From assembly GCA_963767925.1 (NCBI GenBank), contig CAVYGB010000002.1:2176001-2240000 (forward strand): a DNA stretch of 64,000 nt, written 5' to 3'. The stretch comes from an uncultured delta proteobacterium (GTDB lineage Bacteria > Myxococcota_A > Polyangia > Fen-1088). This document shows, one piece after another, positions 5,376-64,000 of the stretch. The notes below the pieces were generated by a model. The model searched no databases, had not been told where the DNA came from, and saw only the letters and a program-made list of their open reading frames with translations. The position numbers and the translations under genes are program-made. Within the stretch, counting starts at the first letter, position 1. Each line of letters opens with the position of its first letter.

Positions 5376-6356
5376 TCAGTCCCGCACCGACACGACCGAG
5401 CCGTCGTGGTCGAAGAAGAAGCGCACCTCGGTGAGCCCCTCGGCGGCCAGAGCCTGCCGCAGGGCCGGCGGGTTGTCGGCGTAAAACAGCAGGAAGCCGC
5501 CCCCGCCCGCGCCGACCAGCTTGCCGCCCAGGGCCCCGTTTTTCATGCCCACGTCGTACCAGCGGTCGATCTGGGGGTTGGTCACGTCGGGCGAGCGGCG
5601 CCGCTTCCAGTCCCAGTGCTCCTGCATCATGGCGGCGAAGCCGCGTACGTCCCCCTGCTCGAGCGCGGTGCGGATGCGCAGGCCCAGGTCCTTGGTGAAG
5701 TGCAGGTTCTCCAGCATGGTGGCGTCGCCGGTCTGCGACTGCTGGTTCTGGTGCTCGAGGATGGTCGAGGCGTCGCGGGAGTAGCCGGTGAAGAACATCA
5801 GGAGGCGCTCCTCCAGGTCGTGCAAGGTGGCGTTCGACACCGACAGGGGCGAGACCCGCACGTTGCCGTCGGGGGCGAAGTCCATGGCGATGAGCCCGCC
5901 GTAGGCGGCGACGTACTGGTCCTGCTTGCCGACGTTCGAGCGCAGGATGTCGATCTCGATGTGGCAGGCCTCCTCGGCCAGGGCGCCCGCCGTGACGTGC
6001 TCGCGCTTGAAGGCGTAGACCGCGCGCAGCAGGCCCACCGTGAAGGAGCCGGAGGAGCCGAGGCCAGTGCCCGAGGGGATGTCGGCCAGGCTGACGATCT
6101 CGAGGGCGGGGCCCACCGGGTGACGGCGCAGCACCTCGCGGATGAGGGCGTGCTTGATCTCGTCGACGGTGGTGGTGCGCTCGAGCTGCGAGTACTTGAG
6201 CAGGTAGTCGTTGGTGAAGGTCCGGTTGATCCCGATGTAGATGTACTTGTTGATCGCCGCCGAGAGCACGAAGCCGCCGTGCTTCTGGTAGTAGGAGGGC
6301 AGGTCGGTGCCGCCGCCCCCCAGCGCGATCCGCATCGGCGTCCGGACGATGATCAT
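5376..6356 (-). CDS. hddA: GHMP kinase, D-glycero-alpha-D-manno-heptose-7-phosphate kinase
   Basis: RTPMRIALGGGGTDLP, DIPSGTGLGSSG, GKQDQY, GGKLVGAGGGGFLL. Confidence 0.88.
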   Translation of the reverse strand: MIIVRTPMRIALGGGGTDLPSYYQKHGGFVLSAAINKYIYIGINRTFTNDYLLKYSQLERTTTVDEIKHALIREVLRRHPVGPALEIVSLADIPSGTGLGSSGSFTVGLLRAVYAFKREHVTAGALAEEACHIEIDILRSNVGKQDQYVAAYGGLIAMDFAPDGNVRVSPLSVSNATLHDLEERLLMFFTGYSRDASTILEHQNQQSQTGDATMLENLHFTKDLGLRIRTALEQGDVRGFAAMMQEHWDWKRRRSPDVTNPQIDRWYDVGMKNGALGGKLVGAGGGGFLLFYADNPPALRQALAAEGLTEVRFFFDHDGSVVSVRD

Positions 6357-7150
6357 CGGCGTCGGGCCACGATGGTGAAGCCGAGGCTCTCGGTGGGGTC
6401 GGGCAGGGCCCGGTCCAGCAGGCGCACACCCGCCGCCACCGCCAGCATGGCCGGCCCCACCAGGGGCAAGGTCCACAGGCGCGGGCGGCGCGCGGTGGTC
6501 GCCTCGTGCCCCAGCTTGCCCATGGCCTGGGCCAGGCCGCCCACCTCGGCCACCTGCAGGGCCAGGTAGCTGTTGAGCTTGTGCCCCAGCAGGCTCCACA
6601 GGCCGCCCTGGGGATCGACCTGCTCCACCTCGAGGCCGGCGGCGTCGCAGAGCTGGCGCAGGCCGTGGGGGGTGTAGCGGAAGTAGTCGTGCGGCTCCTC
6701 GTGCAGCCGGAAGGAGAAGGGGGCCGACAGCAGGAGCAGGCCGCCCGGGCGCAGCACCCGGCCCATCTCCTTGACCAGGTCGCCGGGGTGGGGCGTGTGC
6801 TCGAGGACCTGCGAGCTCAGCACCGTGTCGAAGTCCCCGTCGGGGAAGGGCAGCCGCTTGCCGTCGTAGGTCAGGTCGACGGCGGCGCGGGCCCGCCGGC
6901 CGGTCTCGGTCAGCAGGAAGGTCGGCTCGTATTCGATGCCGATGTATTCGCGGACGTGAGGCTGGAAGAGATGAGCGAAGGGCTTCTCCCCGCAGCCGAC
7001 GTCGAGCAGGCGGCCGCTGGCGCGGGGGGCGACGCGGGCCAGGGACGCCTCCAGGTGGGACCACTGCAGGTCGACCCAGTCGGAGGTGGCCCGCACCGCC
7101 CGCCGGATGGGGGGCAGGTCGAGCAGGTTCTGCAAGGCGCTCACCGCCAA
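6353..7150 (-). CDS. Class I SAM-dependent methyltransferase
   Basis: LLDVGCGEKP, LPFPDGDFDTVLSSQVLEH, LRPGG, HEEPHDYFRYT. Confidence 0.88.
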   Translation of the reverse strand: MAVSALQNLLDLPPIRRAVRATSDWVDLQWSHLEASLARVAPRASGRLLDVGCGEKPFAHLFQPHVREYIGIEYEPTFLLTETGRRARAAVDLTYDGKRLPFPDGDFDTVLSSQVLEHTPHPGDLVKEMGRVLRPGGLLLLSAPFSFRLHEEPHDYFRYTPHGLRQLCDAAGLEVEQVDPQGGLWSLLGHKLNSYLALQVAEVGGLAQAMGKLGHEATTARRPRLWTLPLVGPAMLAVAAGVRLLDRALPDPTESLGFTIVARRR

Positions 7151-7157
7151 CCCCTTA

Positions 7158-8591
7158 TCACGGAACGGTCCGGGCGCGCCGGAACCGGGCGGCCAGGGCG
7201 GGCAAGGCGGGCAGGACCAGGGCGGCCAGGGCCAGCAGGGTGCAGACGATGGTCCAGACCGTGTAGCGGTTGTCGGGGCCGCCGGCGGTCAGCAGCACGC
7301 TCAGCAGATACGACAGGCCGGACAGCACCAGCAGCAGGGGCAGCGGCGGCGCCCCCCGCAGGTAGCGGAAGGCGGTGAGGGGCAGCAGGGCCAGCGAGAG
7401 CAGGACGTAGATCCAGGCGGAAAAGCCGATCCAGGTCTGCTGCAGGTCCATCCAGTCGAGGCGCTGCAGGGTGGCGACCGAGGGCTCGTAGGTGCGGGCC
7501 AGGTCGTGGAAGGGGGCCGCCGAGAGGTAGAAGTAGCGGCGGGGCGGCTCGAGACCCCCCAGCCGCATCAGCCGCAGGGTCATGTCCCACTTGTGGCGCA
7601 GGTAGGCCCCGGGGTGGTCGACGATGGCCCGGATCCAGTTGCGCGACAGGCGCTGTAGCTGGGCCTCGTCGGACAGGAGGTTGAACACCAGGACGCAGCC
7701 GTCATCGCGGAAGTAGGCGCAGTGGTAGAGGGTGTCGTTGAAGTCGGGGCGGAACTGCTGGCGCATCTCGGGCAGCCCCATGCCGGGGGTGAGCAGGCCG
7801 GTCTGCGGGTCGATGACGATCTCGTCGATCTTCAGGGAGATGGAGATGAGATCGAAGGCGGCGGCCCGCTGCCAGAAGTTGGTGGCCTTCGCGTGGGGGG
7901 CCAGGGTGGCCCGCAGGCCGAGGGTCAGCACCAGGGTCAGGGCGAGCGCGCCGAGGCTGGCCAGCAGCAGGCGGGGGGCGGGGGAGCGGCGCTGCAGGGC
8001 GGGCAGCTCGAGCAGCAGCAGGACCAGCAAGGGCCAGACCGCGGCGGCGGCGTTGTGGCGCAGGCCGATGGCCAGCAGGAAAAACAGGACGGCCAGGCCC
8101 CGGGCGAGCCAGCGCCAGCGGCCGCCCAGCGGGGCGAGGGCGAAGGCCACCCCGGCCAGCATGGTGGCGTGCATCAGCGTGTCCTTCCAGACCGCGGCCA
8201 CGCAGCAGAGCGAGGGGAGGAAGGACCCCACGCCGAGCAGGGCGAGGGCCCGGGCCGGCAGGGGGCCCGGCAGCGCCCAGAAGATCCCGGTCAGCCCCAG
8301 CCAGTACACCCCGGCGATGATCACCAGCATGCCGCCCGGCCCGGGCACGAGGCGGTCGGTGAAGCGCCAGATGACCGCCATCAAGATGGGGTGGTGATCG
8401 GTGTACAGGCCGTCGCGCGCCTGCTGGAGCTGGTTGCCCGAGTCGCGCGACATGAAGCCCGGGTAAAACAGCTCGAGGGTGAGGGCGAAGGCCAGGGCCC
8501 CCACCAGCGCCATCACAAGCGCCCCCCGCTGCCCGGCCAGCGCCCGCAGCAGCGGGTGCCGCTGCCCGGCGGGCCGTCTCTCGGCGCCCAT
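7158..8591 (-). CDS. Polytopic membrane protein, possible GT-C fold glycosyltransferase
   Basis: Many hydrophobic segments; first loop YPGFMSRDS..Q..QA..G.YTDHHP, then WKD and LRHNA; large periplasmic loop; start at ATG 8591 uncertain. Confidence 0.6.
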   Translation of the reverse strand: MGAERRPAGQRHPLLRALAGQRGALVMALVGALAFALTLELFYPGFMSRDSGNQLQQARDGLYTDHHPILMAVIWRFTDRLVPGPGGMLVIIAGVYWLGLTGIFWALPGPLPARALALLGVGSFLPSLCCVAAVWKDTLMHATMLAGVAFALAPLGGRWRWLARGLAVLFFLLAIGLRHNAAAAVWPLLVLLLLELPALQRRSPAPRLLLASLGALALTLVLTLGLRATLAPHAKATNFWQRAAAFDLISISLKIDEIVIDPQTGLLTPGMGLPEMRQQFRPDFNDTLYHCAYFRDDGCVLVFNLLSDEAQLQRLSRNWIRAIVDHPGAYLRHKWDMTLRLMRLGGLEPPRRYFYLSAAPFHDLARTYEPSVATLQRLDWMDLQQTWIGFSAWIYVLLSLALLPLTAFRYLRGAPPLPLLLVLSGLSYLLSVLLTAGGPDNRYTVWTIVCTLLALAALVLPALPALAARFRRARTVP

Positions 8592-8926
8592 GGAAGTGTC
8601 GGTCACGATGTCGCGCAGTCCTTCTCCGCACGCGCGCGGCGAGCGCGCCCTTGTTAGCACAGCCGGCTGTCCCCGCCCGTCAAATCGGGCGCCTCGGCGC
8701 GTGGCGCGTGCGGAGCCGCCGAGCTTGCTCGGCGCGAAGCTCGCGTGCTGATCGGTGCGCTGAGGGTAACGGAATGTGCCCCCGTGTCCCTGGGGCTCGG
8801 GGCGTGAATTGCAGACACGGTCGGGCGGGTGGGGGCACACCCGGCGGCGCCGCGAGCGGTCGCGCGTCGTCGAGCAAGATCGCTGGGTTCGACGCCGGCA
8901 ATGGCCTCGATCACGAGCGGCTCGGC

Positions 8927-8941
8927 TGGCGTGACGCTTGC
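8927..8941 (+). promoter_or_regulatory. Candidate sigma-54 (-24/-12) promoter
   Basis: TGGCGTGACGCTTGC matches TGGC-N7-TTGC spacing, about 25 nt before ATG 8967. Confidence 0.4.
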
Positions 8942-8966
8942 GATGGGGCGGGCGCCGAGGAGCGTG

Positions 8967-9797
8967 ATGAAGATGAAACGGGCATCAGGGATCGTGTCGC
9001 TTGTGGCGGTGGCCTTTCTCCCCGCCTGCGTGCTGGAAGTGCAGGACGAACCCGAAGGGGGCTGGAACGGACCGCGCGGCGGAGAGTGGGGCGGAACCGC
9101 CGGCACCGGCAGCACCTCGACGGGAGGCTCGGGCCGGCGCGACGCCAGCGCCCCCGACACGAGGCGCGCGCGCGACGGCGGCAGCCGCACCGACGCGCCC
9201 CGCACCCCGCCGCCACCGGACGCCGCCCCCGAGCCGCCCGAGCCCCCCGAGGTCGACGCCGGCTACCCGCCGCCGAGCGAGGAGATGGTCTGTCGCCACG
9301 ATCAGCAGTGCCAGGGTGGGCGCTGCGTGGCCGGCGCCTGCCAGCGCCCGTGCACCACCGACGAGCCCTGTGGCACCGGCCAGGTCTGCACGGGCGGCTT
9401 CTGCCAGGGCAGCCCCCAGCCGGGTGGCCAGTGTGTCTACGCCAGCGACTGCGGCAGCGACGCCACCTGCGTGAACGGCTTTTGCCACGAGCGCTGCGGA
9501 GAGGACGGCGACTGCTCGAGCTCGGCCGACCGCTGCGACCGGGGCCTGTGCCGCCCGGACGTCCGGCCCATTCCGCAATGCACCGGCAACGCCCAGTGCC
9601 CCGCCGACCGCACCTGCGTGGACGCCGTCTGCCGCAACCCCTGCCGCGACGACAGCCAGTGTGGACCGGGCTGCTCGGGGACCGTCTGCTCGGGCGGCTA
9701 CTGCTTCATGCCCGAGGAGCTGACCCCTCCGACCTGCCCGCCGATGCCCCCCACCTGCGGCACCCCCACCGGCTGCGGCCCCACCTGCAGGCAGTAG
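8967..9797 (+). CDS. Cys-rich repeat lipoprotein
   Basis: RBS GAGGA; signal peptide ending FLPAC; Gly/Pro linker; about six C..D..C..G..C..G.C repeats. Confidence 0.8.
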   Translation: MKMKRASGIVSLVAVAFLPACVLEVQDEPEGGWNGPRGGEWGGTAGTGSTSTGGSGRRDASAPDTRRARDGGSRTDAPRTPPPPDAAPEPPEPPEVDAGYPPPSEEMVCRHDQQCQGGRCVAGACQRPCTTDEPCGTGQVCTGGFCQGSPQPGGQCVYASDCGSDATCVNGFCHERCGEDGDCSSSADRCDRGLCRPDVRPIPQCTGNAQCPADRTCVDAVCRNPCRDDSQCGPGCSGTVCSGGYCFMPEELTPPTCPPMPPTCGTPTGCGPTCRQ

Positions 9798-57945: not shown

Positions 57946-60900
57946 TCACTCGACCGCTGCAGCCAGGACGATCGCCCAGCCTGTATCAACCCAGCGGGTG
58001 GTCCCCTTTGGCGTTCCCTCCAGGTACCGCACTCGATTCACCAGCGCTTCATCGAGTCGACCGCCATCTTCGCTGCTCGCGTCCTTCGCTGCAACCACCC
58101 AGGCGACGTCTGTCGTGGTGATCACTCGAGGGCGGAACCCGCCGTCTCCGCCGTCGATGCGGATGCCACCGCTGGTGCGCTCCAGGATCCGGCAGCGACG
58201 CCCGTCTCGTTCTACCCACCCTTGCGGGCCCACCCGCTGAACCACCTCGTCAAGCACGGCGTCGGCGCGCGCAAGGGTGTCGGGCGGTAGCCGCCGGGAG
58301 CTGCCGCGACCCTTTCCCAGGGAACGCCAGGTCGCATGGTCAAGCGCGGGCACGGCCCATTGTTCGTCTTCGGCGAGCCAACGGGCTACGCCACAGTACC
58401 GCCAGCGGTCTTCGGCTTGTCGGGCCAGGACGAACGCGGTCTCCCCCGGCTGGCGGTCGATCACCGGTCTCTCCAGACGGTCCGGCTCGGTGAAGGCGCC
58501 CCTCTCGGTCACAACTATGAACAAATGTCCCTCGAAGCGGCCCGTCTTGATCGGAGGCTCCGAGGCCAGGCCGAAGGCGGTGGCCAACTGGTTCCGGGCG
58601 AGGAGTTCGCCGGGTGCGGGGGCGATGCGTTCGGGCGGCACATGGTCTACCAGAAGGGCGATGGGGATCATGTCCGCCTTAGCCGGGATGGGCTGATGAG
58701 CGGGGTTGTCAGAGCGTAGCTTCCAGCTTCCTTCCTTCTCGACGATGCGCTTGACCTGGTAAGCATAGCTGCCGTGCTGGTCGGGGGTCTTGACCAGGGC
58801 GACGCGGCCGGCGACGGCACCCAGGCCAACGCCGCGGGCCCACCGCATGATCAGCCAGTCGCCGTCGGCGATGGGATTGGCTCCCCCGGCCATCGAGTCG
58901 CCGGCGGCGCGAACCGCAAAGACCTCGTCCTGGACGCCCTCGAAGGGCAGGCTGACTTCCGCGATGTCCGGTGCGTCGGTCCGGATGCCCTCGGCCCGGC
59001 CGGCGGCGACGCGGAGGCTGGGAAACGCGAGGAGGCGGCCGCGCGGCGGCAGGGTGAGTACTTTGCCCTTGGGCTCGATCCACCAGCCGTCAGGGGAACG
59101 GGAGAGTCGCACTTCGAAAGCGGTGCCGGGCTGGCCGGCGGCCGGGCCGAACCAGCGCCGCATCAGGTCGGGGAGGCGGTTTGCCGGCGTCCCCGCGGGG
59201 CGGGCGACGTTGCAGAACTCCTTGGCGAAGCGAAAGGTCCAGACGGCGCCGTCGGGCAATCGGACGTCGGTTTCGCCCGTGGGGATCGTGGGTCGAGCGG
59301 CGCGGGCAGGGAGCTTGAGGATCGGGTCGCGCTTGTTCCAGGTGAGACGGCAAGTGAAACCGTCACCGGGTTCGGACACGCTGAGTCGGGCGCGGTGGCG
59401 GGAGAGTTGATAATCAACGAGCTCTCTGGTCATCGATGTCGCGGCGGCGACCAGGTCCGGAGGTATTCGAAGGCGGAGTACGACCTTCTCCCCGTCGGTC
59501 GCGAACCAGCCTTCGCGAATCCAGTGAGCAATGGCGTGATCACGCCAGAATGAGACCCACACGTCTGGCGAAGGGGTTTGGAGGGTGGGGAGCGCGTGAG
59601 TGTCCTGAAGCTCGCGCAGGAGCTCCGGAGACCGCTGGATGAACGCCTGGCTGCGCTCTGCGAGCTCGGCTACCGCCATTCCGGTAGCAAGGGCCTCCGC
59701 TTCCAGGACGGATTCGAGCACGATCATGTTCCAGGATTGGCCCGGAGAGCTTCGATCTATCGTGTCCAGCCAATCCCCAAGCGCCTCGAGGACGCGGAGC
59801 TCCTCGTCATCGAGATGTCCCTCCTGCCGGACGAACCGGAACCAACCGCCGTGGACTTTGCGCAGGGACTCCGGACGGTACCCCATTCGGTAGAGCTCGC
59901 CCGCCGTGGGTCGGTCGCCCCGGGTGGCAACGAGCTCCCGGTAGACACGCTCGACTTCCAGGGCCCCGCGAGGCAGGAACACCGCCAGCAGGTCCTTCGC
60001 CTCGAGTTCCACGTCGAGCGAGCATCCCGGTGGGAGCTCGGGACGGGCGGCCGACTGCAAGAAGTCCCGGAGCGACGTGGGTCTGGCGACCAGGGAGAGA
60101 AGACGGCGGATCCGGTCGAGAAAGATGCGGTGGTTTCCCACGAAATCGATGACGACGAGCGAGCGCTTCCCCTCGCTGGTGCGCAGGCCTCGGCCCAACT
60201 GCTGCAGGAACACGATGGACGACTCGGTGGGGCGAAGCATCACCACCCGGTCGACCGCCGGGACGTCTACGCCTTCGTTGAACATGTCGACCACGCAGAG
60301 GGCTTCCAGCTCGCCGCTTGCGAGGCGCTCCAGGGAGAGAACGCGATCAGCGGAGCCGGCGCCGGCGTAAACGGCCTCAACGCGAACCGCCTTGGCGCGC
60401 AGCCAGTCCCGGACAAAGCGCGCGTGCTCTATGGAGCAGCAGAAGACCAGTGTCCGCGAGCCGGGGTGCTTGGCCCAACCCTCCCAGAGTCGGTCCATCC
60501 GCCGTTGGGTCTGGACGGCAGCCGCCAGGGCCGCCGGATCGAAACTGCGGTTCCGCCAGGGAATCTGGGCGTAGTCCACGTCGTCCCGGAGCCCAACGTA
60601 GGAGAAGGGCACGAGACGCCCACGGGTTATGCCCGCGCCGAGGTCAGCCCGGTAAGCGACGAAGTCGTCGAAGAGACCGAGGATGTCTCCTTCGTCCGCG
60701 CGGTCGGGCGTGGCGGTTAGACCGATCAGGAAGGCCGGGTCGAGGTGGTCGAGTACACGGCGGTAGGTTGGGGCGCTCGCGTGATGGACCTCGTCCACGA
60801 CGACGTAGTCGAAGGCGTTGCCGAGGAGACGGTCCAGGTTCTCGGGGCGGCTGAGCTTCTGGACGGACGCCATGACCACGGGAGCTTCGAGCTGGAGTAG

Positions 60901-62178
60901 GTCGCCGGCACACCAGCCGATGTTTGCTGGCTGGCCAGAGGCGAGCAGTATGCGTCGGAAGGTTCGAGCGGCCTGGGTGAGAAGTTCCTCCCGATGAGCC
61001 AGGAACAGCACGCGCGGCCACCTCCCTGTTTCGCGCGCCACTCGACCCAGGTCGAAGGCGGCCAGCCAGGTCTTGCCCAGCCCCGTGGCGAGGACGACCA
61101 GTGCCCGTCGGCGACCCTGCGCTCTGGCCGCCGCCAGGGCGGTGAGCGCCTCCTCCTGGAATTCGTGGGGATCGGGTGGCGGGGGTGGGTCCTCGACGTC
61201 CACATCCCCCGGGGGCGGAGGGCGGGGGTTGGCGAGAACCCGGCGTTCATAGTCGTCTATCCATGCTGCGCTGAGATCGATGGCGGCGGTCCAGAGGGAC
61301 TCGAAGGCGTTGGTGACCGCGTCGTACGCACCCGGGTCGATCGTGCGGTCGACGCGCAAGTTCCATTCGATGCCGGTCTCCAGTGCGGAGCGCGAGATGT
61401 TGCTGCTCCCGACGAAGGCCACCTGGGAGTCGGGACCTTCGAAGCGCCAGGACTTGGGATGGAAGGCGCATTCCGAGCCGTCCGGACGGGTGGTCTCGAC
61501 GACGCGGACCTCCAGTCGGGGAGATTCGGGCGACGACCCACCCTCCACGCGATGGTCCATCTGCGACCATGCCAGGAGTTCGCGCAGGGCCGAGACCTGG
61601 GTAAAGGCGAGGTAGTCGCCGGTCACGAGTCGTACTCGTGCCCGGCCGTGTAGGGCTGAGAAGACGCTGGGCTCCAGCACCTCGAGACCGCTCTCGGTGA
61701 CGAAGGCCGCGACGATGGCGATCTCCCTGGCGGTTGCGAAGAGGGGCCAGAGGTGCCGGCCGAACGGGTCCGTGCGCCCGCCGGTGGCCAGCGGGGACGG
61801 TCTTTCGTGCGGTTGACTGACCCGACCGGCAGTCACCGGGTGGGGCTCGCCCGTTGGGTGCTCGACACCTCCCGCAAAGCGCGGGATGACGTGCACGTGT
61901 AGATGCATCGTGGTTTGGCCGGCTACCAGGCCGGCGCTGAAGCCCACGTTGTAACCAGCCGGTTGCAGTTCCCGATCGAGCGACGCTTTGACCTCCTCCA
62001 CCAGCGCCCACAGCGCCCGTTTCTCGGCGTCGGTGGCGTCGAAGTAGCTCGGTACCTCCCGTCGGGAGACCACCAGGGTGTGGCCCGGTCCGGTCCCGGG
62101 ACGGTCCCTGACGGCGAAGGCCAGGGCGTTGCTCGCGACCCATTCGGTCTGGGGGATGTCGAGGAAGCGCGAAGGCAT
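57946..62178 (-). CDS. HIT - PLD nuclease - SF2 (DEAD/DEAH) helicase - S24 (LexA-like) peptidase fusion
   Basis: GHTLVV, GQTTMHLHVHVIPR (HIT); FHPKSW...FVGSSNIS (PLD); LATGLGKT, VDEVHH, GLTATPDR, QQLGRGLR; VAAG, GDSM, IADGD, VKR, LRSDNP (S24). Confidence 0.88.
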   Translation of the reverse strand: MPSRFLDIPQTEWVASNALAFAVRDRPGTGPGHTLVVSRREVPSYFDATDAEKRALWALVEEVKASLDRELQPAGYNVGFSAGLVAGQTTMHLHVHVIPRFAGGVEHPTGEPHPVTAGRVSQPHERPSPLATGGRTDPFGRHLWPLFATAREIAIVAAFVTESGLEVLEPSVFSALHGRARVRLVTGDYLAFTQVSALRELLAWSQMDHRVEGGSSPESPRLEVRVVETTRPDGSECAFHPKSWRFEGPDSQVAFVGSSNISRSALETGIEWNLRVDRTIDPGAYDAVTNAFESLWTAAIDLSAAWIDDYERRVLANPRPPPPGDVDVEDPPPPPDPHEFQEEALTALAAARAQGRRRALVVLATGLGKTWLAAFDLGRVARETGRWPRVLFLAHREELLTQAARTFRRILLASGQPANIGWCAGDLLQLEAPVVMASVQKLSRPENLDRLLGNAFDYVVVDEVHHASAPTYRRVLDHLDPAFLIGLTATPDRADEGDILGLFDDFVAYRADLGAGITRGRLVPFSYVGLRDDVDYAQIPWRNRSFDPAALAAAVQTQRRMDRLWEGWAKHPGSRTLVFCCSIEHARFVRDWLRAKAVRVEAVYAGAGSADRVLSLERLASGELEALCVVDMFNEGVDVPAVDRVVMLRPTESSIVFLQQLGRGLRTSEGKRSLVVIDFVGNHRIFLDRIRRLLSLVARPTSLRDFLQSAARPELPPGCSLDVELEAKDLLAVFLPRGALEVERVYRELVATRGDRPTAGELYRMGYRPESLRKVHGGWFRFVRQEGHLDDEELRVLEALGDWLDTIDRSSPGQSWNMIVLESVLEAEALATGMAVAELAERSQAFIQRSPELLRELQDTHALPTLQTPSPDVWVSFWRDHAIAHWIREGWFATDGEKVVLRLRIPPDLVAAATSMTRELVDYQLSRHRARLSVSEPGDGFTCRLTWNKRDPILKLPARAARPTIPTGETDVRLPDGAVWTFRFAKEFCNVARPAGTPANRLPDLMRRWFGPAAGQPGTAFEVRLSRSPDGWWIEPKGKVLTLPPRGRLLAFPSLRVAAGRAEGIRTDAPDIAEVSLPFEGVQDEVFAVRAAGDSMAGGANPIADGDWLIMRWARGVGLGAVAGRVALVKTPDQHGSYAYQVKRIVEKEGSWKLRSDNPAHQPIPAKADMIPIALLVDHVPPERIAPAPGELLARNQLATAFGLASEPPIKTGRFEGHLFIVVTERGAFTEPDRLERPVIDRQPGETAFVLARQAEDRWRYCGVARWLAEDEQWAVPALDHATWRSLGKGRGSSRRLPPDTLARADAVLDEVVQRVGPQGWVERDGRRCRILERTSGGIRIDGGDGGFRPRVITTTDVAWVVAAKDASSEDGGRLDEALVNRVRYLEGTPKGTTRWVDTGWAIVLAAAVE

Positions 62179-62224: not shown

Positions 62225-64000
62225 TCAGCCGCTGGCGAGGGTGGCGTACTCCTCGAACAGGGGGGCGGACATGGGGTGGGTCACCTTCCAGGTGATTGCG
62301 ATCGGTCGGTCTCCCGTGTGGCTCTCGTAGACGACCGGGCCAAGGAAGGCGTAGGCGTCGTCGGGCGATGGGCGGACGAAGAGATAGAAGGTCCAGCCGT
62401 TGCCTGGGCTCTCGAGGTAGCGTCTCCCGCTTGAGGTGGTGACGCTGGCTGCCCCCTGGGTCTCCCAGTGGAAGTGGTCCCGGCTGATGGCGAAGTCGCG
62501 GTAGCGGGTCGATGGTGAGAAGTCCTTGCCGGTCTTGTCCAGGGTCACGAACAGCAGCTCGCGCTTTTGCCCTGGCACGGCGAGGATGCCGCCCTGGGGG
62601 ACGGAGCCCTTCTTGCCGGGGACCACGTAGCCGACGGCGGCCACAATCTCTCTTCGGCCGTAGTGGCGATGAAGGGCGAGTGGCCACTCCGGAACCGGAT
62701 AGATGTCCGACGCGAGCCCCACCCGGTCTTCGAGGACCTCTCGCAGCTCCTCGAACTCCTCCACGAGACCTGGCCTCGCGGCGAGGTACCGGGCGGTCTC
62801 CTCGGCGGCACGCAGCACACCCCGATGGCTGAGCTGGAAGTCCAGCATGTGCATGCGTATCCGGTCGCGTGGGCCCGGTTCGATGGTCTCGCCGCGGGCG
62901 GCGGTCGCAAGCAGGTCACGGTAGGCACGGAGGCGCTGCGGTTCGTCGGTGTGGGTCAGCCAGCCTAGCCGGCGACTGACCTCCTCGGTCTCCTCGTCGC
63001 CGTAACCGGCTGGGAGCAGCCCGGCGATCTTCCGGATGGTGGTCCATCCGAAGTCGTTGCGGTTGTAGACGTCCTCGAGCTCCCGGCCCGACTCTTCGAG
63101 GAAGTGGCGCAACGAGACCTTGCCGCCTGGGGTCGCGGAGGCCACCTGGCGGAGCTCCTGGGCCAGACGCTTGGAGCCCCCCGCCAGGGACGCGCGAAGG
63201 CTGCGGAGGATGGTCTCGCGCGCGACGGCGTCGAGCTGGACGGCGCAACCGCTGGGTAGATAGGGGAAGCCCTCCTCGACGGCGCTGCGGACCTTGGCGC
63301 GCGGTAGGCCGGTGAGGGCGGAGAGGATGCCGTCGAAGCGAAACTCCTCCCGGTGTTGCCCGATGAAGTCCAGGACCAGGCAGGTGCTCTTGCCCTTGTG
63401 CATCCGCAGCCCCCGCCCAAGTTGCTGCAGGAACAGGGTGGCGCTCATGGTGGGCCGCAGGAGCAGCAGGGTGTCGACGAAAGGCAGGTCCACGCCCTCG
63501 TTGTAGAGGTCGCAGGTGAACAGCACGTTCACGTCTCGGCTCCGCAGTTGACCTGGGGCGGCCTCCCGCTCCTTGTCGGGGGAGTCACCGTGGAGGGCCA
63601 GGGCTGGCACGCCGGCGGCGGTGAATTGGGCCGCCATGAAGCGGGCGTGTTCGATGCTCACGCAGAACCCGAGGGCGCGCACGGAGCGGACGTCCCTCAC
63701 TCGGCGGCCGAGCTGGTGCAGCACGAGTTGCGCGCGGGCCTGGTGGCCGCTGTAGATGCCGGCCAGCTCGGCCGCGTCGTACCCTTTGCGCGACCAGCGA
63801 ACCTTGGTCAGATCGACACCGTCGGACACGCCGTAGTACTCAAACGGCACGAGGAGCTGTCGCTCGAGGGCATGCCACAGCCGCAACTCCGCCGCGATGT
63901 GGCCGTCGAAGTCGGGTAGGAGGGACTTCTCGTCGCTCCGCTCGGGGGTGGCGGTGAGCCCCACCATCAGGTCGGGCCTGAGCCGGGGTACCACCTTCTG
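62225..64000 (-). CDS. SF2 helicase with C-terminal DUF3427 domain (5' end outside window)
   Basis: GLTATPERSD, GFCVSIEHA, DLYNEGVDLP, QQLGRGLR; LLFVTLDK..FSPSTRYRDFAIS..HFHWETQ, LFVR, AFLGP. Confidence 0.88.
   Translation of the reverse strand, partial: QKVVPRLRPDLMVGLTATPERSDEKSLLPDFDGHIAAELRLWHALERQLLVPFEYYGVSDGVDLTKVRWSRKGYDAAELAGIYSGHQARAQLVLHQLGRRVRDVRSVRALGFCVSIEHARFMAAQFTAAGVPALALHGDSPDKEREAAPGQLRSRDVNVLFTCDLYNEGVDLPFVDTLLLLRPTMSATLFLQQLGRGLRMHKGKSTCLVLDFIGQHREEFRFDGILSALTGLPRAKVRSAVEEGFPYLPSGCAVQLDAVARETILRSLRASLAGGSKRLAQELRQVASATPGGKVSLRHFLEESGRELEDVYNRNDFGWTTIRKIAGLLPAGYGDEETEEVSRRLGWLTHTDEPQRLRAYRDLLATAARGETIEPGPRDRIRMHMLDFQLSHRGVLRAAEETARYLAARPGLVEEFEELREVLEDRVGLASDIYPVPEWPLALHRHYGRREIVAAVGYVVPGKKGSVPQGGILAVPGQKRELLFVTLDKTGKDFSPSTRYRDFAISRDHFHWETQGAASVTTSSGRRYLESPGNGWTFYLFVRPSPDDAYAFLGPVVYESHTGDRPIAITWKVTHPMSAPLFEEYATLASG

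Follow-up and report, generated by a model that had tools for sequence, protein, structure and literature searches.

The stretch analysed here (called the window; 64,000 nucleotides, positions 2,176,001 to 2,240,000 of contig CAVYGB010000002.1 from an uncultured delta proteobacterium) carries on its minus strand, at 57946–62178, a single open frame for a protein of 1410 amino acids (aa). This protein is called P0001 below, while other P and L numbers denote homologous proteins and loci, respectively. As judged from sequence and structural models, P0001 is a protein on the plan of SauUSI (PLD nuclease, SF2 motor, coupler and SRA domain) with a B3-like barrel and a LexA-type S24 autopeptidase placed before the SRA, a HIT domain at the head and an extra domain at the tail (Table 1). 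We discuss here the possibility that the S24 domain lets DNA damage switch this enzyme off.

Table 1. Features of P0001 and of the gene upstream of it. Positions are those of the window.
Feature	Residues	Positions	Strand	Basis or remark
Whole gene P0001: HIT – PLD – SF2 – coupler – B3-like – (Ala-Gly) S24 – SRA-like – tail		57946..62178	-	
HIT domain	1–125	61804..62178	-	Pfam PF01230, E 3.7e-16; triad H92/H94/H96 at 61891–61905
PLD-family nuclease	129–315	61234..61794	-	H240/K242/N260/E271 = SauUSI H119/K121/N139/E150
SF2 ATPase/translocase	336–690	60109..61173	-	Pfam ResIII + Helicase_C
Helical coupler with winged-helix-like part	691–935	59374..60108	-	partly degenerate in P0001
B3-like DNA-binding barrel	938–1040	59059..59367	-	VIA structural match to R.NgoAVII B3 4RD5
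Predicted scissile bond	A1059–G1060	58999..59004	-	homologue conservation and LexA alignment
S24 autopeptidase domain	1047–1184	58627..59040	-	S1095 at 58894–58896, K1143 at 58750–58752
Shortened SRA/DUF3427-like domain	1186–1292	58303..58623	-	7CLG match; hhalign
Conserved C-terminal domain (tail)	1296–1410	57949..58293	-	38 columns conserved at >=90%
Upstream gene, 3' part (1046 aa, extends beyond the window; L001 10225–13365)		62225..64000	-	SauUSI-like PLD-SF2-DUF3427

Pfam recognises HIT (residues 13–101, 60 bits), ResIII and Helicase_C (together 337–667; 118 and 47 bits) and Peptidase_S24 (1056–1169; 35.8 bits, cut-off 23.3). PLDc_2 (223–296) reaches 20 bits, which is under its cut-off of 27, and no NCBIfam model reaches its cut-off. 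The HIT, PLD, SF2 and S24 motifs that an earlier note on this DNA had named are all present in the 1410-aa frame. That note had also described about 240 aa of further domains behind the S24; the domains are indeed there, an SRA-like one and then the tail, over a somewhat shorter length of ca 225 aa.

The closest solved relative of P0001 is SauUSI (7CLG; E 4.7e-73, residues 158–684), and the top PADLOC model is mREase_IV (E 5.6e-83, residues 139–731). Because the alignment to 7CLG covers 158–684, the PLD assignment is secure despite the low Pfam score. The catalytic residues of SauUSI are H119, K121, N139 and E150 (PMC3141236), and their counterparts H240, K242, N260 and E271 are each kept in all 108 homologues that span the site, 12 of the best 120 being fragments. 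The SF2 motifs comprise the Walker A lysine K369 (109/109 homologues), the DEVH box at 462–465 (D462, E463 and H465 in 114/114) and motif VI at 657–666. The coupler is modelled as helices plus a winged-helix-like unit, with a predicted local distance difference test score (pLDDT) of 88, and the model matches residues 618–798 of SauUSI 7CLG (Z 8.0, root-mean-square deviation (rmsd) 2.9, 106 aligned), tied with generic winged helices. A sulfur-binding (SBD) reader at 800–935 was considered and rejected. SBD matches have Z 6.6, below the 8.0 of the SauUSI coupler, and the region is hence called a coupler; a Foldseek search there gave nothing at E 0.001.

For residues 930–1410 the AlphaFold2 model has a pLDDT of 93 and a predicted template modelling score (pTM) of 0.88, and the structural search divides it into four domains: B3-like barrel, S24, SRA and tail. 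In the VIA comparison the barrel matches the B3 domain of R.NgoAVII (4RD5) with Z 7.3, that is, below 8 (rmsd 3.2, 101 aligned). Further B3 matches (FUS3, ARF1, RAV1, UbaLAI and BfiI) have Z 4–7, and every row for the region is of the B3 type; an ESM Atlas search with it gave no match. The SRA-like domain matches SauUSI 7CLG 803–953 (Z 8.1, rmsd 2.7, 88 aligned) and many other SRA domains at Z 5–6.5. Its ESM Atlas leads are all SRA/DUF3427-like with scores <0.9, and hhalign links it to the DUF3427 set with a probability of 73%. For the tail, which was searched only inside the four-domain model, the best Z is <4, and no Pfam or PHROG match was found.

It should be stressed that the SRA of P0001 differs from that of SauUSI at the site of recognition. 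D858 and W868 are among the predicted 5-methylcytosine (5mC) pocket residues of SauUSI (PMC7913695), and according to the profile alignment the D858 loop is deleted in P0001 and W868 is replaced. The D/W pocket is retained by the upstream SauUSI-like gene and, in its canonical form, by 135 of 137 DUF3427-type S24 proteins. P0001 is regarded as SauUSI-like in its working but, with the two equivalents missing, is not counted among the 5mC-dependent enzymes of this type. The DNA mark that it reads is probably, as far as the alignment tells, another one than the 5mC of SauUSI.

The S24 domain has its site residues at A1059–G1060, S1095 and K1143, with the scissile bond 36 residues N-terminal of the serine, and the Ala-Gly aligns with that of the host genome's own LexA. 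It matches LexA 3K2Z with Z 13.1 over 118 aligned residues, and the top Foldseek matches of the model are the cleavable lambda CI forms 8GMU, 2HNF and 2HO0; RecA-bound and hyper-cleavable CI fragments rank first, with E 2.4e-6 for the match to RecA-bound CI. A search with residues 700–1410 gave 407 homologues among 7992 candidates scored, and A1059, G1060, S1095 and K1143 are each found in 120/120 of the best 120 of these (46–65% identity). By these numbers the arrangement is more than a chance finding. As the best 120 are close relatives, the count was redone on representatives at 50% identity. This distant S24 census comprises 552 representatives at E 1e-10, of which the best 150 were listed and 100 span the domain. 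Ala-Gly with Ser and Lys is found in 57 of the 100 and Cys-Gly with Ser and Lys in 29, giving 86 intact sites, and 14 are altered. Cleavage of LexA and UmuD takes place at these same two bonds (PMC9926225). The earlier note had let its proposal of a cleavable enzyme depend on the conservation of these S24 residues, which both counts confirm.

In LexA, F111, L113 and V153 receive F203 of RecA, and D150–E152 form an acidic patch that faces RecA K232, R243 and K245 (PMC9926225). These positions were mapped on P0001 by their distance from Ser and Lys. The equivalents of the F203 pocket are F1087, V1089 and Y1140. Of 255 proteins of the Ala-Gly type, 249 have F at the first of these positions, 248 have V/I/L at the second and 228 have Y/F/W/L at the third. 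The host genome has an intact recA on C2 and a lexA. Sequence and models together suggest that the S24 domain likely docks on filaments of RecA on single-stranded DNA (RecA-ssDNA) and cuts the chain at Ala1059–Gly1060.

Some observations weigh against this. The pocket residues double as core residues of the S24 fold, and P0001 has no acid at the positions six to four before the lysine (K−6 to K−4), where LexA has the D150–E152 patch. Among the 255 Ala-Gly-type proteins a single acid occurs there in 69 and a pair in none; over the wider loop there is a mild acidity (1.85 vs 1.25 per 9 residues). Furthermore, B3, S24, SRA and tail are predicted to be packed as one unit (pTM 0.88), and the two pieces might therefore remain associated once the chain is cut. 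A complex prediction with two host RecA copies and B3-S24 had a score of 0.00, which carries no weight either way. The host genome also contains a second recA, split into two pieces that overlap and lie in different frames (G000:C10:1609991-1610780; L066, L067), which reflects a frameshift or an assembly error.

By its gene content, P0001 sits in a defence-type cluster. The upstream SauUSI-like gene, 46 bp away, matches PADLOC mREase_IV at E 6.5e-222. Beyond the window, L001 13524–19998 contains a 203-aa open reading frame without family match and a GmrSD_N (DUF262) protein of 645 aa, and on the opposite strand two WYL proteins and an ADP-ribosylglycohydrolase. In 14 of 24 related loci a nuclease, toxin-antitoxin or other defence-type gene lies at most three genes away, by our own reading and counted without a background control. 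Five of the 24 loci have a SauUSI-like DUF3427 gene next to the family gene. Although many of the contigs are short, an obligatory two-gene system with the upstream enzyme was rejected on this count, the partner being optional. No DNA methyltransferase was found among the 6 scanned neighbours in the own locus, nor any DNA methyltransferase family among the 124 scanned neighbours from 24 loci at E 1e-6 with heuristic gene calls (128 were picked, and the omitted four are already known as SauUSI-like); two small class I S-adenosylmethionine (SAM) methyltransferases are among the 124.

The C-terminal region is matched in 43 of 401 genomes of the phylum, with the own genome and partial matches counted, and in none of the 40 nearest relatives searched. 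P0001-type proteins are, by these matches, patchily distributed. The phage collection gave no match and the plasmids 5 weak records, nothing in a promoter and terminator scan of the locus exceeds shuffles, and a search of sequencing runs found the sequence in a single DNA run, at a small share, and in no RNA run. With the mREase_IV and SauUSI matches, the defence cluster and the patchy distribution, the restriction-like defence nuclease suggested by the earlier note is supported.

As to what the S24 domain does in such an enzyme, it is known that the ATPase of SauUSI is activated by target binding through the SRA and is barely stimulated by non-specific DNA (PMC7913695), and that type IA/IB restriction enzymes undergo proteolytic restriction alleviation after DNA damage via ClpXP (PMC12707154). 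The reading that we favour, tentatively and with somewhat less than an even chance of being right, is that self-cleavage triggered by RecA-ssDNA switches a SauUSI-type enzyme off upon damage to the cell's own DNA. It draws on sequence, models and analogy. The full-length enzyme, of 156 kDa and dimeric via the PLD as in SauUSI, would bind foreign DNA via the B3 and SRA/tail domains, followed by ATP-driven translocation and cutting. Upon damage to the cell's own DNA, RecA-ssDNA would dock on the S24 domain, and the cut at 1059/1060 would yield a 118 kDa HIT-PLD-SF2-coupler-B3 piece and a 38 kDa S24-SRA-tail piece. Targeting would thereby be lost, as CI and LexA lose operator binding. An enzyme that nicks the chromosome would in this way provoke RecA-ssDNA and be destroyed, that is, restriction alleviation would be self-contained.

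Inactivation is favoured for three reasons. First, SRA binding starts the SauUSI motor, and the cut, located between coupler and SRA, would remove the SRA. Second, the B3 takes the place that a helix-turn-helix (HTH) has in repressors with the same S24-SRA module. Third, damage-linked proteolysis of restriction motors has precedent. Regarding the second point, the S24-SRA unit with intact Ala-Gly, Ser and Lys stands behind an HTH on the stand-alone repressor-type proteins P0325, P0331 and P0338 (Pfam HTH). P0332 is a fourth HTH-S24-SRA-like protein, with the HTH judged by eye; these proteins look like CI-like repressors with a possible DNA- or nucleotide-sensing domain.

The opposite outcome is the damage-triggered activation of the earlier note. 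In this view the S24-SRA-tail part would mask the B3 or the motor until RecA-ssDNA formed in infection removes it, and the relaxed nuclease thus set free would kill the infected cell or destroy the invader. Arguing by analogy, we favour the off switch over such an activation, which we consider unlikely. Several features of the family nevertheless point to activation and count against the off switch. Of the 46 S24 proteins without an SRA/DUF3427 match, 37 end within 15 residues after the S24, and 30 of these 37 are intact (only the endings at L010 and L063 were compared with DNA). In these forms the cut would remove the S24 alone and no reader, so that switching off would need the S24 as a necessary oligomerisation domain. 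In addition, L062 and P0298 end after the B3, like the predicted N-terminal product, with the PLD His/Lys and the helicase motifs kept, and the N-terminal cleavage piece may thus be an active enzyme. The predicted packing of B3 and S24 together (pTM 0.88) and the absence of DNA methyltransferase families from the 124 neighbours also speak for activation. Cleavage activates UmuD (PMC9926225), and GAPS4 is a known damage-triggered suicidal nuclease (PMC13748975).

On the other hand, S24-less genes persist with the His/Lys (L062, P0298, P0267, P0274, P0315 and P0322), and loss of the S24 is thus not plainly lethal. In the last four of these the B3 is joined directly to the SRA-tail, with the His/Lys and helicase motifs intact. 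Moreover, non-specific DNA hardly stimulates the SauUSI ATPase (PMC7913695), and the parallel to the HTH-S24-SRA proteins suggests that DNA binding is lost on cleavage. Other variants end after the SRA or after the tail. In the helicase tree (a quick one, with 102 of 325 rows, support from the Shimodaira-Hasegawa-like approximate likelihood ratio test (SH-aLRT) only, and 25 of 98 forks open) the S24-less forms are scattered among Ala-Gly rows, which suggests that the S24 was lost repeatedly.

Another set of observations comes from a sister group, which was searched with the distant member P0269 as seed and gave 1360 matches among 7993 candidates. The layout, PLD-SF2-coupler-S24-DUF3427, lacks the B3, and a SAM methyltransferase often stands in for the HIT; named members are from Paraglaciecola, Spiribacter, Geobacter and SAR324. 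In 118 of the 119 newly listed sister proteins (P0343–P0461), a large clade from Gamma- and Deltaproteobacteria, the catalytic Lys is Arg, with Cys-Gly and Ser kept. An exchange of Lys for Arg impairs cleavage in LexA genetics, a point for which our literature search yielded no confirming paper. The Arg clade means that a conserved scissile motif alone is no proof of cleavage, and this also counts against the reading as an off switch. At the RecA determinants the Arg clade has F in 120/120, Y/F in 120/120 and an acid at K−6 to K−4 in 119/120. From this conservation, the S24 in the Arg branch can be kept for more than fast cleavage, probably for binding of RecA-ssDNA. In the tree the Arg forms fall in one clade (support 100), together with a single Lys row and a single Ala-Gly chimera. 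The Cys-Gly forms are separate from the Ala-Gly forms and group with the neighbour genes of the plain SauUSI-like type (support 99).

One may then ask whether the S24 is mainly a sensor of, or tether to, RecA-ssDNA filaments, or an oligomerisation domain, such that the nuclease is recruited or sequestered by docking, with cleavage serving as no more than a timer. That the RecA determinants are better conserved in the Arg clade than in the Lys clade would fit this, as would L063, with an S24(Arg) and no reader behind it, and the 6 of 100 representatives in which the scissile dipeptide is lost and Ser and Lys are kept. However, the Lys is present in 120/120 proteins of the P0001 clade, and 86 of 100 representatives combine the dyad with Ala-Gly or Cys-Gly; we regard this alternative as improbable. 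The L063 protein (Pseudoalteromonas, 6288–9239) is a PLD-SF2-coupler-S24(Arg) chain that ends at the S24, and its neighbours are a small SAM methyltransferase, an ABC three-component system and a convergent DUF3427 helicase.

The off switch and the Arg forms could be parts of a wider scheme, in which a branch of SauUSI-like enzymes is wired to RecA-ssDNA: a portable S24 would read the filament, the Lys clades would cut the reader off, and in the Arg clade the S24 would be a non-cleaving tether that can replace the reader. This scheme would extend over >1000 matches in myxobacteria, other Deltaproteobacteria and Gammaproteobacteria. We put it forward with more reserve than the off switch itself, as a possible but doubtful generalisation; if it is true, RecA-ssDNA gates defence effectors besides repressors and UmuD.

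A further alternative is that cleavage does not depend on RecA at all, being triggered by a ligand or a DNA structure on the altered, arginine-rich SRA, or that the cut enzyme turns from SRA-dependent targets to targets read by the B3 only. It is precisely in the clade with the altered SRA that the acidic RecA patch is weak, the S24 and the altered SRA travel together onto HTH proteins, and B3-only and B3-SRA-tail forms without S24 exist. Nonetheless, we judge this explanation to be quite improbable, as the hydrophobic RecA pocket is retained and the SRA-tail also occurs without S24, which speaks against a dedicated S24 trigger.

Finally, P0001 itself could be a decaying copy that is no longer a functional enzyme, in a family that works by the off switch. 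Of 465 conserved columns it misses some 40, which cluster in the HIT and the coupler, and its sister row P0006 lacks the HIT triad. However, its frame is open, no catalytic residue of the PLD, SF2 or S24 is lost, and the SF2, B3, S24 and SRA stand at the family median, which makes this very improbable.

Among 108 full-length members the median number of missed columns is 12. The HIT of P0001 misses 16 of 60 conserved columns, compared to a median of 1 in 100 homologues, with the triad intact, and the coupler misses 11 of 57, compared to a median of 2. A compensating frameshift behind this drift was ruled out: no hidden frameshift was found, and the remaining frames score nothing against the family domain models. 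P0006, in which the triad is lost, is the sister row of P0001 in the tree, and in relatives the HIT is swapped for a SAM methyltransferase or absent. As inferred from these comparisons, the HIT is accessory and probably fading in the P0001 lineage. Of the nucleotide-processing module of the earlier note the triad is present, but the module is not essential to the design. A class I SAM methyltransferase (Methyltransf_25/11/12) replaces the HIT N-terminally or adjoins the gene in P0104, P0117 and many sister-group proteins, and at L005 2253–2915.

It is useful to compare P0001 with known systems. With SauUSI it shares the PLD H-K-N-E residues, the SF2, the helical coupler and the SRA-fold domain in equal order, the lack of a cognate DNA methyltransferase nearby, and a nucleotide-hydrolase companion (MutT adjoins SauUSI, while the HIT is fused in P0001). 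It differs in the B3 and S24 between coupler and SRA, the N-terminal HIT, the extra C-terminal domain and the missing equivalents of D858 and W868. With LexA, lambda CI and UmuD it shares the fold, the Ala-Gly or Cys-Gly site, the Ser-Lys dyad and the hydrophobic pocket for RecA F203, but its S24 is inside a 1410-aa nuclease-motor and not in a repressor or polymerase subunit. Compared to LexA, the Ser-to-Lys spacing is 48 instead of 37, the acidic patch is missing and more domains follow the S24. The NgoAVII/CglI systems also have a PLD nuclease and an SF2 ATPase together, with a B3 domain to which the B3-like barrel of P0001 may correspond (PMC7913695), but as R2H2 subunits and not as a single chain; in P0001 the Z1/C domains were not detected, no cognate methyltransferase is among the neighbours, and S24 and SRA are carried in addition. 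ClpXP restriction alleviation of HsdR (type IA/IB) is the counterpart of the proposed damage-linked proteolytic silencing (PMC12707154), with the difference that in P0001 the protease would be built in, is predicted to be gated by RecA-ssDNA and belongs to a type IV-like single chain.

In the literature we found no description of an S24 domain in SauUSI-like or other restriction enzymes, the search having mostly covered sources other than subscription papers and supplementary homologue tables. Homologues are labelled as helicase/HIT/LexA fusions in public databases. The architecture is thus already annotated but, to the extent of our search, has been given no interpretation. The proteins cleaved upon RecA-ssDNA that are named in PMC9926225 are repressors and UmuD; if the favoured reading is true, they would be joined by a defence enzyme, a restriction nuclease-motor that carries its own RecA-gated cut, and this would be a one-protein answer to how modification-dependent enzymes spare the host. 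As cleavable, non-cleavable, S24-less and Arg forms are all natural, a clean test is possible. Moreover, a DNA mark other than 5mC is a possible target of the altered SRA and of the B3 barrel.

A few other observations should be mentioned. P0287 is an HNH nuclease fragment followed by an S24 of the same type with an intact site, which places the S24 on at least one further nuclease class. The B3-like barrel recurs in the PNP-phosphorylase-kinase proteins P0277 and P0293, where a metallophosphoesterase or an SRA-tail unit comes after it. Judged from such arrangements, the reader domains are portable between conflict-type proteins. At L004, L011 and L012 the gene lies in two or more frames, which indicates broken genes or long-read errors. 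The WYL pair near P0001 consists of divergent WYL-WCX (PafBC-like) genes. DdaA was considered as an S24 protein and rejected, as it is listed as a WYL protein. Further on, L002 273–1436 encodes a protein with a weak match to PADLOC PDC-S11, and L002 1461–1928 resembles the end of the WYL gene L001 17962–19035, which suggests that a duplication or rearrangement has taken place locally, close to the end of the contig.

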